A stretch of 64,000 nucleotides of DNA from a phage. The DNA lies in the sequence record PX915676.1. One strand, written 5' to 3'. The translations under genes were made by a program, and so were the position numbers. The notes under the pieces were generated by a model. That model did no database searches. It saw only the letters and a program-made list of their open reading frames with translations, and had not been told where the DNA came from. Of this stretch, positions 382 through 49,600 are shown piece after piece; the stretch's first letter is position 1; every line of letters starts with the position of its first letter.

Positions 382-457
382 GCGCTCTTAGCTCAATGGA
401 TAGAGCAGTAGCCTTCTAAGCTATTGGTTACAGGTTCGAGTCCTGTAGGGCGCACCA
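382..457 (+). tRNA. tRNA-Arg (anticodon UCU)
   Basis: Cloverleaf folds by hand: acceptor GCGCTCT/AGGGCGC, D-arm GCTC-AATGGATA-GAGC, anticodon stem GTAGC/GCTAT with loop CTTCTAA (anticodon TCT), T-arm ACAGG-TTCGAGT-CCTGT, discriminator A and encoded CCA. Confidence 0.85.
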
Positions 458-463
458 CATTTA

Positions 464-578
464 GGGCTAGTATGGGTGCGGCACCAGAGTTAGTGTATCC
501 CTGTTGAGGCAAGTGCTTTTATAACAGTGGGAATTGCTTTCTTAGTGAGCTTCTGGTTCGATTCCAGATAGTCCACCA
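464..578 (+). ncRNA. tRNA-like element (non-canonical; possible degenerate tRNA or structured RNA)
   Basis: Canonical T-arm TCTGG-TTCGATT-CCAGA followed by ATAGTCC-A-CCA that pairs 6/7 with GGGCTAG at 464-470, but 115 nt long and no canonical D or anticodon arm could be folded. Confidence 0.3.
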
Positions 579-597
579 AATCAAATAGGAGGTAGTT

Positions 598-879
598 ATG
601 AGTTGGGGTGGTGTAATATCCTTAATCTGTATCTTCCTTGTCTGCATAGCCCTTACAGGCTGCGTACAGAGCCGTCCTGATGGATGGTGTGCAGTAGCAG
701 TGGAAGGTGTTTGTGTTTCTCGCTGGCATAAAGGTGAGAAGGTTCCTTCTGGTGAAATTGATATGCGTTACAGTGGTATCTCATGTCTGAATGGTGCAGC
801 AGTAGATGAGGAGACTAAAACCTTATCCGATGCGCAGTGGTGTGGTGGCTCTACAGTTACCACTGGTAAGGAGTGGTAA
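598..879 (+). CDS. predicted lipoprotein (Cys-rich), early gene
   Basis: AGGAGG SD 5 nt before ATG; N-terminal hydrophobic signal VISLICIFLVCIALTGC with lipobox L-T-G-C; mature part has 6 further Cys. Confidence 0.6.
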   Translation: MSWGGVISLICIFLVCIALTGCVQSRPDGWCAVAVEGVCVSRWHKGEKVPSGEIDMRYSGISCLNGAAVDEETKTLSDAQWCGGSTVTTGKEW

Positions 880-2143: not shown

Positions 2144-2174
2144 GGGAGGATTCGTCCCCTCCCCCTATTTTATT
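2144..2174 (+). terminator. rho-independent terminator-like hairpin
   Basis: GGGAGG-ATTCGTCC-CCTCCC stem-loop followed by CCTATTTTATT. Confidence 0.5.
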
Positions 2175-5964: not shown

Positions 5965-6936
5965 ATGTCAATCTCCACAACGATCGTACCTCTTAACCTT
6001 CAACAGGATTTAGGGGAACAGAAGTTCTTAGGTCGTGGGTGCTTCGGTATCCACAACTACATGCAAGGTCAAGTCGTATATGATGTTAATGACGAATGTG
6101 TAATGGAAGATGGGCGCCATAAACGCTTCAACCGTGACATTAACTTGCAATTGGAGATGTTGAATTACTGGACCCACTCTTTTCATGGTCATGTTCCATC
6201 TGATATTGAAAAGAACTTGATTGAAACAGCAGACATTATGAATTCTATGTCTTGCTATCGTGATGTATTTACTATCACTTCAGCGAACAGTGTTGCTGTC
6301 AATCTTCGTGAGCATCCAGCAGATCAGATCTTCACAGGACTTATGCTCTTCCGTAGTATTCTGGAAGGGCAATATCGTGGAATGGATTTCCTAGCAGAAG
6401 GAATTGAAGACAGGGAAGAGTGGCTGAAGCGTAAACGCATCGGCATCGCTCTAGTGTTAGCTGGGTTAGGTCGTGACTTCTTCGGTGGGTGGTCTCAACG
6501 AGGAAGAGCCAATGGTAGTAGCGAGAGCACCTCTATTGTTATTAACAACAATATGTCAGCAGCAGCATTCCTTCCTTTGGTTGTAGACTCTGATGAATAT
6601 ACGAAGCAAGTATGGGTTCAAAACCCCTTCGGTGTTGGCGACAATGAGAATGGTTATGTTCGTAACCACAACCAAGATGCCTTACGAAGATTTGCTCGTG
6701 CTAAAGATCAAGACCCAGACGAGTATGAAACAATGTCAGAGTGGTTAAGACTCTGGTCCAACTGTTATGGTCACAAACGTGAAGCAATAGACGACAAGTT
6801 GGGAAACATTACGGTACAAAACTTTACAGCCCGACTGATTCAAAGAACTGGAGCAGATTCCGGTCTTACTCTTGAAGAAGTTGGTAACACAATCTCATCT
6901 CTCTTTTCTGAACTAGTGGAGTATTACAATGACTAA
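5965..6936 (+). CDS. hypothetical protein (ligase cluster)
   Basis: 323 aa; AAAGG SD; no motif recognised. Confidence 0.55.
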   Translation: MSISTTIVPLNLQQDLGEQKFLGRGCFGIHNYMQGQVVYDVNDECVMEDGRHKRFNRDINLQLEMLNYWTHSFHGHVPSDIEKNLIETADIMNSMSCYRDVFTITSANSVAVNLREHPADQIFTGLMLFRSILEGQYRGMDFLAEGIEDREEWLKRKRIGIALVLAGLGRDFFGGWSQRGRANGSSESTSIVINNNMSAAAFLPLVVDSDEYTKQVWVQNPFGVGDNENGYVRNHNQDALRRFARAKDQDPDEYETMSEWLRLWSNCYGHKREAIDDKLGNITVQNFTARLIQRTGADSGLTLEEVGNTISSLFSELVEYYND

Positions 6937-31181: not shown

Positions 31182-31206
31182 AGCCACCTCCGGGTGGCTT
31201 TTTTCG
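31182..31206 (+). terminator. rho-independent terminator
   Basis: AGCCACC-TCCG-GGTGGCT perfect 7-bp stem followed by TTTTTTCG. Confidence 0.7.
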
Positions 31207-31452
31207 TTGGAGACAACATGCAAAACACATTAAGTGATAACTTAGGGTTTATCGTTTTCTCAGCTCTTGTATTCTTTGGTGGTATGAAGTTTAACGAGTA
31301 CCAAACAGACAGTAGTAATCTGGATAAAGAGAAACATCAACAAGAGTTAGAGATTGAAAGAAATAGAGCAGCTGATGAAGTTGCTCAGAGGGTTCTTGCC
31401 GGTTTATCTAACTGGAAGAAGAACACGGAAACCGTTTATAAAGAGATGCATT

Positions 31453-32742
<1,290 letters not shown>

Positions 32743-45642: not shown

Positions 45643-46611
45643 TTACCAACTCCCTATCCTGATTCTCAGAGCACCGCTTCCATCGTAGAAGTCTATTCTG
45701 TTACCATTCATCCACAATTGTGCCCCACCTGTGCCACCCATAACAAAGTCCCCACCAACAGTAAGTCTCCAGTTAGAACCCCACATAGAGCCAGCAGTAA
45801 TCTTATCCGCTGACAAGTTCTGAATCTGAGCATTGGAGATAGATACGTTATCAATCTGTGCCCATTGGATCCTAGCGTTGGCAATCTGAGCTGTTGTGAT
45901 GTTGACGTTCTTTATGTCAGCGAACTCCATCCTAGCCCTACCACCCTCAAACACAAAAGGTGTGTTACCAGAGCTGCCATCACCAACAATAAACTTGTTA
46001 GCTGTTACTTGGAATTGACTGTTTGTTCCGTTGTTAGTTAACTTGACCCCAGCATATCTTCCGTTTACTGTAGAGTTAATACCCCACGTAGCTTCATATT
46101 CAGAGAGCTTCATATACTGAGATAGGCTTCCATTAATATTTTGAATCTCTGTCTGAACCAAAGCAATCTCTTGACCTTGGTCGTTGACGATACCTTCTAC
46201 AGTTTGAATCTTGGTTGTGTTACCTTCAATACTTGTTTTAAAGCCAGATACAGTGCTTTCTAATTTTACAGGAGGTTGAACAGAATTATCCCAAATATCT
46301 TCAGTGGAGAGGTTCCCCATCTGTGTTTGGATATCGGCAATAGCTGTCTCTATCTCTGTAGTAATTCTATTCTCAAGCTCATCGAATTGTAGATTCATTG
46401 CATTAAGAGCTTTAATACGAACATCAATCTCTTCGTGAATTTCATCTATAGCTTGGAACATTTGGTTAGTAGCTGTGCTAACTTTTTGTAATTCATCATA
46501 CACGGCTACGTTATATGTTTCTGTGTCCTGTACATTATTGAGAAACCCAACGTTGTACGGGAGTGTGGTGTTATTGCGACCAGTGTTCTTACGAAAACCA
46601 CCTGCACCCAT
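45643..46611 (-). CDS. tail fibre-like protein
   Basis: Start taken at ATG after GGAGG SD (track start 46677 is TTG inside the upstream gene end); central coiled-coil-like region. Confidence 0.45.
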   Translation of the reverse strand: MGAGGFRKNTGRNNTTLPYNVGFLNNVQDTETYNVAVYDELQKVSTATNQMFQAIDEIHEEIDVRIKALNAMNLQFDELENRITTEIETAIADIQTQMGNLSTEDIWDNSVQPPVKLESTVSGFKTSIEGNTTKIQTVEGIVNDQGQEIALVQTEIQNINGSLSQYMKLSEYEATWGINSTVNGRYAGVKLTNNGTNSQFQVTANKFIVGDGSSGNTPFVFEGGRARMEFADIKNVNITTAQIANARIQWAQIDNVSISNAQIQNLSADKITAGSMWGSNWRLTVGGDFVMGGTGGAQLWMNGNRIDFYDGSGALRIRIGSW

Positions 46612-46620
46612 AAGTTCCTC

Positions 46621-46650
46621 CAAAACAATAAAAGGGGCACGAAGCCCCTT
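46621..46650 (-). terminator. terminator-like hairpin inside structural block (minus strand)
   Basis: Minus-strand GGGGC-TTCGT-GCCCC then TTTTATTGTTTTGG, between the stop at 46655 and the next RBS. Confidence 0.45.
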
Positions 46651-46654
46651 GTTG

Positions 46655-49600
46655 TTATCTCCGCCCGCCAACAGCAAACTCTATCGTTAAACCATTGATA
46701 GCAGCATTACTGTTAACATCATTATCTATAACATTATAGAAAAGGTATGGATGGTTCAGTCTCACAGAGACATGCCTGTCAACACCGATCGTGTATGTCT
46801 TAGATGTGTGTGGGTGTCCATATTCATTTGAGAATTGACTACCACCAGCTTCAAATATGTAAGTACCTGAACCAGTTGTCTGAGGTCGGAACCTGTTAAT
46901 ATGCTTCTGATTCCACTCATTTGTCACATTATCAAAATCTATACCAGTCCTCTCTAACCTCATTTCCAGAGGCTTCTCTATAATAACATCGTTTAGCCTG
47001 TCATAGAAATAGTCAAGAGCACCTACATCCACCTGATAGAATCCCCTCAAGAACGAACCTACTATAGTAACCCTCTGTCTGAAGTTTGTTGCATCCTTTC
47101 TCCAAACAAGTTCTTTAATAGATGGGTCATCCCAAGTGATTTCTTGGAAGTCAGACCAGATTGGACCTCTTTCTAAAACAGGAGGATCAACAAGACCAAT
47201 ACACTGAGCATATGGTATAGTACGGAAAGACCAAGTATCAAACTCGTAGTTCCATACAGCAGCTTTAGTACAAGCGAAGCTTTCTTTTGGTTCTCCCGGA
47301 CCTACGTACAGAACCCAAACTTCTTTCTTATCCTGATGCAAGTGTACTCGAGTTGCTAGAGGGTTAACCAGACACACCTCGTTAATCAACATGTTCTTGA
47401 CACGGTTAGATGCAATTGACTTCTTGGTTGCACCATTGTGTAAGATTACATCGTTCTGAGTAACTACGAAGTGACTACCTTCTACTTCAACCACACACTC
47501 AGGAGCAAGGATACCAGAGTCATTAAAGAGCTTCTTGAACATTAGAGGTTGGTACGTGTTATTAGTCGGAGAACCAATATACGTTTCAAACTCTGTGTAA
47601 ACGAACAAGTAATCTTTAAGAGGTAGGATATCAATCAAGCTACCATTAGAGTCAGCTAAATCAATGTAACCAGCATATCCATTCTCTAGAGCCTGAGTCT
47701 GCCCTACAATGTTAGAAGCTAAGTCCGAAGACACAACTCGATCATAGGCAAAGTCATCCCACAGCGTAGGAGCCTTGTTCTCATTGGCAAAGTTAGACCA
47801 ACGAAGACGAAGCGGATAGTTAGTGGTAACACCAGAAGCATTAGCTTCTCTCATATTCAGAGCAAAAAGACGGTTGTTAAAAGATCTTACTCTTTCACAT
47901 TTCCAGTTAAACTTCTTGACTGAAGGGTTTCCATCGTTATCAACAACTGTTTGCTCACCCCACCCCGGAAGGTCTACAAAGTATTCTGATTCGAATTCTT
48001 TTACCTGAGGAGTTTCATAGTGAGTTGTAGCAACTGCACAGTTAGAGATAACAGCGTGATACCAAGGATAGTCATCAAAAGCATCGTAGTCCTTCTGAGT
48101 CATCTGACTGACAGTACATGTTACGTTAATCTCTCCTTTACGAAGAGCAACCAGTTTGATAGATTTACCAGTAACTGAGGTTGTAGAAACATAACCAGTT
48201 TTATCAACAGACCACTGATAAGAGTACTCACCTTCTGGAGAAGCTGTGGCTGTAATGACAATCTCTTCACCAACATCAAGAGAAGCACTGACAATATCTA
48301 AGGTTACAGACGACAAAGGGGTTGCCAGTAAAGAAGCTCTTGCAAAACCTTCAATATCATTCACGTTAGAGTAGTCGTAGAAGTTGTTACCTTCATACAT
48401 CCCTGACGTATCAATACCGGATGTAGGCTCAGCAAAATAAATTGTCTCTTCACTTTCAGGAGGAGTTACTACTTCTTCCTCTTGAGTTTCTACTGACGCT
48501 GACACAGGAGCGGCAAATGCCATAGCACTTGTCATCATTGTCCTTCCAGCTAAATCCACACGTACAGTACAGACAGCAACTCTGTTACCTTCTTCAGTGG
48601 TAGCTGTAATCTCAGTAAAACCAGCAAGTAGAGCGTTGATCGTCCCTTGTGTGCTAGTCCCTGATACTGTTGCAATATTTGGATTAGAAGAGGTCCAAGT
48701 AATATTTTGATTAGGGGCGTTAGCAGGAGAAAGGGTAGCAGTTAAGATATACTGAGAACCTCTACTCACAGTAACATCTGACTGGCTTAAAGAGATACTA
48801 TCAATCTGAGGGATAGAAACAATCTCACAAGAAGCAGTCTTAGTCCCGTTATCAGCAGTGATTGTTACATTACCTTCTCCATTCGCTGTAATGACAGCAG
48901 TTAAAGAGTTGGCGTTAGGGGTTACGGATACAATAGAAGCATTATTGCTTGACCAAGTTACAGGGGTCTTGCCAGTAACAGCCGTGAGAGTAGTAGTCCC
49001 CCCTTTACGAATTGTAACAGTGTCTTGACTCAAGAAGATGCCTGAATCACCGTCGATAATATTAACAGCAATCTGAGCCACCACGGATTCATTGGCAGTA
49101 GAGATAGTTACTACAAGATTACCCTCTTTCTCAAAAGATGTTAGAGTAGCAAGTTTAGAGTCACTAGGGTCTACCGTAATACTTCCATAGGATGAGTTAC
49201 TAACCTCCCAAATAAGATCAGTATTGTTAGCATCAGCAGGGAGAAGAGAAACCTCTAGATTCTTGGTCTGATTGAAGTTCATTGAGATAGTTGATTCTTT
49301 AGGAACGATCTGAGAAACAACTGGATAAATCTTAATTGAGGCAGAAGCCTTCTTAGTGACTGTAGCAACCTTACGGCTAATATCAGTCAAGCTTTCATCT
49401 GTCAGTTTGTATAACTTCTTATCCGTACCTACAACAAGAAAGCTATTACCTGCGCTATAATAATCGAAAGGCATAGAAACGAAAGACAGAGGGGTTAAAT
49501 CCTTATCTTCATCTACATAAGAAAGAGGGGCATTGCCCCCCGTCTTAAATACTCTCTGCTCAACAAATCGAGCATTTATAGCATTAGTGAAAGCATTAGG

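Follow-up and report, generated by a model that had tools for sequence, protein, structure and literature searches.

An early lipoprotein of a Kuravirus-type coliphage belongs to the Rtp45 family and is probably directed at LptD

Introduction

What would a small lipoprotein, encoded among the early genes, do for a coliphage? The question is raised by a gene near the start of the phage sequence PX915676.1, of which a stretch of 64,000 nucleotides (here called the window) was analysed. The window is that of a Kuravirus-type coliphage (phiEco32/SU10 group), and its first 3 kb have about 88-93% nucleotide identity to Kuravirus-type coliphages including PGN6866, ES17, SU10 and Paul. The gene is annotated as hypothetical in the BASEL genomes, and a reading made from the sequence only (the sequence-only reading) had guessed that its product is a superinfection-exclusion or receptor-masking factor. 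We report that this guess is supported by Pfam family membership, by homology to the phage lipoprotein Rtp45, by the predicted fold and by genomic association, and that a target can now be named: the protein is likely to be an exclusion factor of the Rtp45 family that is directed at LptD.

Rtp45 is the superinfection-exclusion lipoprotein of the siphophage Rtp, and it has been seen together with LptM in a cryo-electron microscopy structure of the Shigella LptDE complex (9RPS; PMC12685063). In this structure, LptDE is in its closed state, and Rtp45 occupies a site between LptE and LptM at the periplasmic membrane interface. A Cys30-Cys38 disulfide staples a beta-hairpin, a long hairpin reaches up the lumen of LptD, and extracellular loop 4 of LptD is moved by up to 20 Å, which leaves the phage receptor protein unable to bind (PMC12685063). 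In small siphophages, the gene of the Rtp45 type lies directly 5' of the gene for the LptD-binding receptor protein (Rtp44 in Rtp, RBP_Oeko in Oekolampad) and beside the gene for the J-like tail tip protein (PMC8594841, PMC12685063). Four unrelated receptor-protein families have been described at this siphophage locus, one each for FhuA, BtuB, LptD and YncD (bioRxiv 10.64898/2026.04.02.716166). In our Pfam scan both Rtp44 and RBP_Oeko were assigned to DUF6453, the one of these families that is specifically linked with the targeting of LptD.

Results

The early lipoprotein is a member of the Rtp45 family

The lipoprotein matched the Pfam family PF24052 ('Phage_lipoprotein') with an E-value (E) of 6.6e-36 and a score of 122.6 bits (cut-off 27), its residues 3-93 covering positions 1-80 of the 80-position profile. 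The same family is matched by Rtp45, the Oekolampad protein, SH6 gp50 and the F20 lipoprotein. The lipoprotein also matched phrog_4281 (function unknown; E=7.9e-35), which holds Rtp45 as well, and these two were the sole significant matches in the Pfam and PHROG scans. An NCBIfam scan gave no match for the lipoprotein or for the gp19 homolog described below. When the PDB was searched with phmmer, Rtp45 (9rps_D) was the only significant chain for the lipoprotein, with E=7.8e-16, and the other match at E<=10 was an unrelated carrier. A repeat protein of 1541 amino acids (aa), P0015, was rejected as a homolog, its match to the variable loop being compositional.

In an alignment of 25 family members, the best-conserved part is the core that forms the disulfide and the hairpin in Rtp45 (RPDGWC...GVC...W..G.KVPSGEIDMRY). 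Cys31 (688-690) and Cys39 (712-714) align with the Cys30-Cys38 disulfide of Rtp45, and these two residues are invariant along with Gly29, Gly60 and Cys22, the cysteine of the lipobox. The C-terminus is also a family feature, with ...SKEWN at the end of Rtp45 and ...SREW at that of the Oekolampad protein. A variable insertion is bracketed by Cys63 and Cys82, and the columns of these two cysteines are perfectly linked, with both present in 12 sequences and neither in 13. The linked occurrence argues for a second disulfide, which is predicted to close the variable loop.

An AlphaFold2 model of the lipoprotein was built from 23 homologs and had a mean predicted local distance difference test score (pLDDT) of 79. 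The Foldseek comparison of this model with the PDB returned a single credible match, which was again 9rps_D (probability 1.00, target-normalised template modelling score 0.75, root-mean-square deviation 4.1 Å, 39% identity). The predicted fold of the lipoprotein thus resembles the experimental structure of Rtp45. For the complex, AF3 predictions are reported to be incorrect even in the case of Rtp45 (PMC12685063).

A metagenomic member of the family, P0012 (loci L012 and L013, on contigs of about 640 bp), has a siphophage-type MK... signal peptide, and its Cys63-Cys82 loop (DEKAYRERDMETQANWKKSDFISRATHCGG) is nearly the same as that of the 108-aa Kuravirus allele P0008. This likeness suggests an exchange of the loop or of the gene between lineages.

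The gene has a fixed start and encodes a lipoprotein signal

The open reading frame (ORF), the AGGAGG Shine-Dalgarno sequence, the signal peptide and the L-T-G-C lipobox of the sequence-only reading were all recovered (Table 1). An in-frame TAG at 586-588 rules out an upstream start and fixes the start of the lipoprotein at 598. The hydrophobic region of the signal peptide is long, and the Kyte-Doolittle values of residues 6-20 (VISLICIFLVCIALT) average 3.06. Cys22, the predicted site of lipid modification, is followed at position +2 by Val, not Asp, and sorting of the predicted lipoprotein to the outer membrane is therefore expected, in line with the established +2 residue rule of Lol sorting.

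On the other hand, the description of the protein as Cys-rich, with six more cysteines in a 70-residue mature part, has to be corrected. The cysteines are at positions 11, 16, 22, 31, 39, 63 and 82, and Cys11 and Cys16 fall inside the signal peptide. The mature part is 72 residues long, and only Cys31, Cys39, Cys63 and Cys82 follow the putatively lipid-modified Cys22. The ratio of nonsynonymous to synonymous substitution rates was 0.18-0.30 when the gene was compared with three orthologs (SU10, Bas91 and Bas94), indicating that purifying selection acts on it and that the gene is real.

The window encodes a DUF6453 protein directly behind a J-like tail needle

The second line of evidence for LptD comes from the tail genes of the same window, which encode a homolog of SU10 gp19. 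A tblastn search of the window found this homolog with RBP_Oeko (E=2.8e-11), with Rtp44 (E=3e-10) and with a profile of the two sequences (E=1.8e-15), and in a phmmer search of the PDB it matched 9rpt_C only (E=1.9e-9). It scored 84.6 bits against PF20051, the Pfam entry of DUF6453 (cut-off 25), and reached E=9.5e-109 against phrog_1265, for which Rtp44 gave 8.8e-99. The alignment showed that it is collinear with the LptD-binding receptor proteins over its full length. In public records gp19 is labelled 'membrane protein', 'hypothetical protein' or 'moron'. The PHROG label of phrog_1265 looks wrong, because Rtp44 and RBP_Oeko are LptD-binding receptor proteins.

The gene directly 5' of gp19 encodes the homolog of SU10 gp18, which is the tail needle (PMC9509320). 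It matched the Pfam family Phage_Tail_Tip (PF09327) with E=5.5e-27, and BLASTP aligned it with residues 905-1107 of Rtp43, the J protein of Rtp (E=1e-5), and with residues 868-1079 of the Oekolampad J protein (E=2e-7). The aligned stretches are the last 200-230 residues of the Rtp and Oekolampad J proteins. The podovirus thus has counterparts of the three components of the siphophage LptD module, namely the J-like tip, the DUF6453 protein and the PF24052 lipoprotein, with the gene of the last moved to the early operon.

Lipoproteins of the family occur together with DUF6453 proteins

In IMG/VR, 27 family loci were found by an alignment search that was narrower than the 25-sequence set. In each of the 19 small-siphophage loci, the DUF6453 gene lies immediately 3' of the lipoprotein gene, and in all three Webervirus loci it lies about 9.9 kb from it, so that the two genes co-occur in 22 of the 22 non-Kuravirus loci. 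The other five loci are from Kuravirus and have no DUF6453 gene within 10 kb, as is expected from the 44-kb separation of the two genes. Since the genes are also unlinked in Webervirus, adjacency to the receptor gene is typical of the PF24052 family rather than defining for it.

A distant prolate podophage, Salmonella phage 7-11 (loci L010/L011), shares head and replication genes. Neither the lipoprotein nor a DUF6453 protein nor a J-like needle could be detected in this one genome compared. The joint absence is consistent with the three parts having been acquired as one module.

Within the Gordonclarkvirinae, the lipoprotein gene was found in 97 records, in length classes of 93, 99 and 108 aa. 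The gp19 of the window is 100% identical to that of SkaterBoy_Bas90. The lipoprotein of the window is a 93-aa allele with 97.8% identity to those of PGN6866, FH3 and 1-6af, and 75.8% to the 99-aa allele of Bas90. The genome is a mosaic in which lipoprotein and gp19 alleles reassort independently within Kuravirus, a pattern that would fit binding of the lipoprotein to the receptor on its conserved periplasmic side.

A further family member with the second Cys pair, P0011, was seen at 6001-6285 of a 50-kb contig (L014; Logan SRR28250349). It belongs to a different phage and has auxiliary and early-type genes as neighbours (KilA-N, TerB, NAMPT, phosphoribosyl pyrophosphate synthetase and TerC). 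No receptor-protein gene adjoins it within 6 kb.

The gene lies in the early region

The sequence-only reading had placed the gene in the early region, and synteny agrees: the lipoprotein is the ortholog of SU10 gp104 ('putative lipoprotein'), which falls within the early genes of SU10, coding sequences 69-125 (PMC4281155). The phiEco32 counterpart is labelled 'putative phage lipoprotein'. As context, the position of a tRNA-Arg gene marks a tightly packed early transcription unit around the lipoprotein gene. A promoter scan found 9 sigma-70-like sites where 11.4 were expected, with no enrichment and no site directly 5' of the lipoprotein gene. The gene is probably transcribed within a long early message.

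Several other elements of this region were observed. Between the tRNA-Arg gene and the Shine-Dalgarno sequence, there is a 115-nt element (464-578, plus strand) with a tRNA-like acceptor stem, a T-arm (GGTTCGATTCC) and a 3' CCA. It is near-identical in SU10 and in Bas91, where the tRNA-Arg allele is different, and it is absent from Bas94. Neither ARAGORN nor Rfam called it and its fold z-score was -0.47, so that it was rejected as a tRNA; a tRNA that has decayed or been interrupted is a possible reading. Two small early ORFs on the plus strand have dense cysteine patterns: the one at 1579-1710 encodes 43 aa with 9 cysteines (MESNGTCPDCGCETWDGVSVYPACSYSPVICKTCGDQPCDQSC), and the one at 194-373 has a single CKTC near the C-terminus. 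Both may encode small zinc-binding early proteins. The early region also contains, at 2144-2163 (plus strand), a strong hairpin of the terminator type (GGGAGG...CCCTCCC) with a T-rich tail behind it, 3' of the lipoprotein gene cluster and just 5' of the gene for a D5-like regulator.

Table 1. Positions in the window of the lipoprotein gene, its parts and the other genes discussed
Feature	Position	Strand	Remarks
Lipoprotein gene	598..879	+	ORF of 93 codons plus TAA; PF24052 / PHROG 4281 member
Shine-Dalgarno AGGAGG	587..592	+	Read from the sequence; 5 bases 5' of the ATG
Signal peptide, residues 1-21	598..660	+	Aligns with the signal peptides of all family members
Lipobox L19-T20-G21-C22	652..663	+	Matches the PROSITE lipobox core pattern; Cys22 codon at 661-663
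Rtp45-like core, residues 26-62 (RPDGWCAVAVEGVCVSRWHKGEKVPSGEIDMRYSGIS)	673..783	+	phmmer alignment to 9rps_D; AlphaFold2 pLDDT about 90
Variable insertion bracketed by Cys63 and Cys82	784..843	+	Absent from Rtp45; length varies among Kuravirus alleles; AlphaFold2 pLDDT about 60
C-terminal strand ending K-E-W	844..876	+	AlphaFold2 strand at residues 81-92, pLDDT 84-92
tRNA-Arg(UCU)	382..457	+	ARAGORN; Rfam tRNA 72.4 bits; just 5' of the lipoprotein gene
Rz-like i-spanin with N-terminal transmembrane segment	31194..31568	+	Overlapped pair
Rz1-like o-spanin, +1-frame ORF with classical lipoprotein signal	~31453..31713	+	Second lipoprotein gene of the window
SU10 gp19 homolog, 343 aa	44610..45641	-	DUF6453/PF20051, phrog_1265; candidate cognate receptor-binding protein
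Tail needle, SU10 gp18 homolog	45643..46677	-	Annotated homologs start at 46611 (322 aa); gene directly 5' of gp19

Discussion

The results place the early lipoprotein of the window in a family with a known mode of action, and homology, predicted fold and genomic association together support the reading of it as an exclusion factor. We propose that the protein, made early as a lipoprotein of the outer membrane, would dock on the periplasmic face of LptD, the translocon for lipopolysaccharide (LPS), beside LptE and LptM. Its disulfide-stapled beta-hairpin would be pushed into the lumen of the LptD barrel, and extracellular loop 4 would be held where receptor-binding proteins of the DUF6453 type cannot engage. 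The infected cell and the debris left after lysis would then no longer adsorb LptD-dependent phages, and progeny would be spared loss on debris.

The excluded phages probably include the phage's own progeny, since the same genome encodes the DUF6453 protein gp19 directly behind a J-like needle. A wider proposal, to which we give an even chance, is that the Gordonclarkvirinae carry the complete LptD-recognition kit common to the small siphophages, that is the J-like needle gp18, the DUF6453 protein gp19 and the Rtp45-type lipoprotein. LptD would in that case be the terminal receptor after O-antigen, in place of or in addition to the LPS core, and the lipoprotein would be the cognate self-exclusion factor. 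The move of its gene to the early operon would have the lipoprotein made before the late receptor protein. In the full-text literature, no paper was found that links Kuravirus, phiEco32 or Gordonclarkvirinae to LptD or Rtp45. Thus, the lipoprotein joins a known family, and the LptD-receptor hypothesis for Kuraviruses is new as far as the literature shows.

Several observations weigh against directing the lipoprotein at LptD or against its role in self-exclusion. In the lipoprotein itself, residues 1-7 contain no Lys or Arg, contrary to the PROSITE rule for the n-region, and such a lack is uncommon among Sec signals; all Kuravirus alleles of the family alignment keep the uncharged start (MSWGGV...). 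A long hydrophobic core can make up for an uncharged n-region. The overall identity to Rtp45 in the family alignment is only moderate (46%), and the disulfide-bracketed insertion of 17-32 residues, which Rtp45 does not have, could alter the docking or the target. In the window, the gp19 gene lies on the other strand, about 44 kb from the lipoprotein gene, and is not adjacent to it as in the small siphophages. In the published Kuravirus model, the long fibres bind O-antigen and the short fibres bind the LPS core, and all ES17-resistant mutants had lost O-antigen (PMC11990801). Because lptD is essential, resistance screens would yield O-antigen mutants instead, as they did for ES17. Finally, two proteomic studies of SU10 virions detected gp16-18 and gp20-24 and left gp19 undetected, so that self-exclusion through gp19 is the least certain part of the proposal.

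Could the lipoprotein bind LptD only against competitors? The absence of gp19 from both virion proteomes would be explained if Kuravirus itself does not use LptD and gp19 is not a receptor protein of the virion, the lipoprotein serving to keep out LptD-dependent siphophages. O-antigen and the LPS core, which so far explain host recognition by Kuravirus, would fit as well, and so would the independent reassortment of the lipoprotein and gp19 alleles. Nevertheless, we consider this unlikely. The numbers of Gordonclarkvirinae genomes that keep the gp19 gene and the lipoprotein gene are about equal; the gp19 gene sits in the late tail operon directly after the J-like needle, and its product aligns collinearly with proteins proven to bind LptD. 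In Salmonella phage 7-11, the lipoprotein, gp19 and the needle are all missing. A tip protein of 37 kDa at 1-3 copies could have been overlooked in proteomics, its mass being near that of the 38.5-kDa capsid protein with 715 copies, and independent reassortment is also to be expected of a lipoprotein that binds a conserved periplasmic face. The fold may, alternatively, have been kept while the target diverged, the Kuravirus lipoprotein binding another outer-membrane protein, or LptE or LptM instead of the lumen of LptD. The hypervariable Cys63-Cys82 insertion and the moderate identity to Rtp45 point in this direction, but the core that forms the disulfide and the hairpin of Rtp45 is what is best conserved, the host species is the same and its LptD is highly conserved, and a receptor-protein family of the LptD type accompanies the lipoprotein at every non-Kuravirus locus in IMG/VR (22/22). 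A diverged target is therefore decidedly improbable.

The remaining alternatives assign the lipoprotein to LPS export or to lysis. By wedging into LptD, the lipoprotein might slow the insertion of LPS and O-antigen or weaken the outer membrane, either aiding lysis or limiting the adsorption of O-antigen-dependent progeny. Indeed, Rtp45 fills the lumen of closed LptDE and blocks the movement of loop 4 that the open state needs, and expression of the Oekolampad homolog in E. coli did not succeed, a possible hint of toxicity (PMC12685063); Kuraviruses, moreover, depend on O-antigen (PMC11990801). Rtp45 has, however, been co-overexpressed with LptDE and no toxicity was reported (PMC12685063), the abundant O-antigen on the surface would persist through one lytic cycle (an argument made in PMC11990801), and a holin, an endolysin and a spanin pair are already among the phage's own products. 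Taken together, interference with LPS export seems very unlikely as the function. That the lipoprotein is an o-spanin (an Rz1-like outer-membrane lipoprotein) or another component of lysis is hardly credible. Like o-spanins, it would be a small, cysteine-containing lipoprotein of the outer membrane, but its gene is not embedded in an i-spanin gene and neither overlaps nor adjoins one, the neighbours being a tRNA gene and small early ORFs. The early position and the strong homology to Rtp45 also speak against this role, as does a mature part with only 2 Pro in 72 residues, and a spanin role of the lipoprotein is excluded by the separate, overlapped Rz/Rz1-like pair at 31194..31713. Thus, an LptD-directed exclusion factor of the Rtp45 family remains the reading that we prefer.

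The mechanism of the family was solved in 2025, and the lipoprotein gene is of value for what it points to. Combined with gp19 and the J-like needle, it makes LptD the predicted protein receptor of coliphages that are widely isolated and have been proposed for therapy. Such a receptor cannot be revealed by knockout or transposon screens, because lptD is essential and the loss of O-antigen masks the receptor. Being essential and conserved, LptD would also be an attractive target for phage steering. Whether any given phage depends on LptD could be tested genetically in a simple way, by expressing the lipoprotein. The analysis further corrects misleading annotations, that of the lipoprotein as 'hypothetical protein' and that of gp19 as 'membrane protein; moron'.

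The closest known system is Rtp45 (UniProt Q333D9; 9RPS chain D), together with the Oekolampad protein bas18_0026; both share PF24052 and PHROG 4281 with the lipoprotein of the window. With Rtp45, the lipoprotein has in common the lipobox Cys, the Cys30-Cys38 pair, the RPDGWC...VPSGEIDMRY core and the C-terminal K/R-E-W, and each of the two is encoded in a genome that also encodes a DUF6453 receptor protein. The differences lie in the phage, in the gene order and in two parts of the protein. The phage of the window is a prolate podovirus, whereas Rtp is a small siphophage; its lipoprotein gene is early and far from the receptor-protein gene, which in Rtp follows the Rtp45 gene immediately; and its lipoprotein has the uncharged n-region and the hypervariable insertion closed by the second Cys pair. 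The PF24052 lipoproteins of Webervirus (Klebsiella phage F20-type) resemble that of Kuravirus in that the gene is unlinked from the DUF6453 gene, lying about 10 kb away among replication genes. They differ in belonging to Klebsiella siphophages, in having a classical MKK-type signal peptide and in being 39% identical to the lipoprotein of the window.

The same logic is known from Llp of phage T5, a small outer-membrane lipoprotein made early that binds the phage's own receptor from the periplasmic side and blocks binding of the receptor protein (PMC9586334). Its target is FhuA, on which it acts through long-range allostery; Rtp45, by contrast, moves a loop aside physically (PMC12685063). The PDB contains FhuA-Llp (PMC9586334), and no chain described as Llp or FhuA-Llp was among the matches of the PDB sequence search (E<=10) or among the 23 Foldseek matches (E<=10). 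For the route of infection, the N4-like podovirus DEV of Pseudomonas binds O-antigen first and then LptD as its protein receptor (PMC12892993). The host, the virus family and the receptor proteins of DEV are others, but it provides a precedent for the route from O-antigen to LptD that is predicted here for Kuraviruses.

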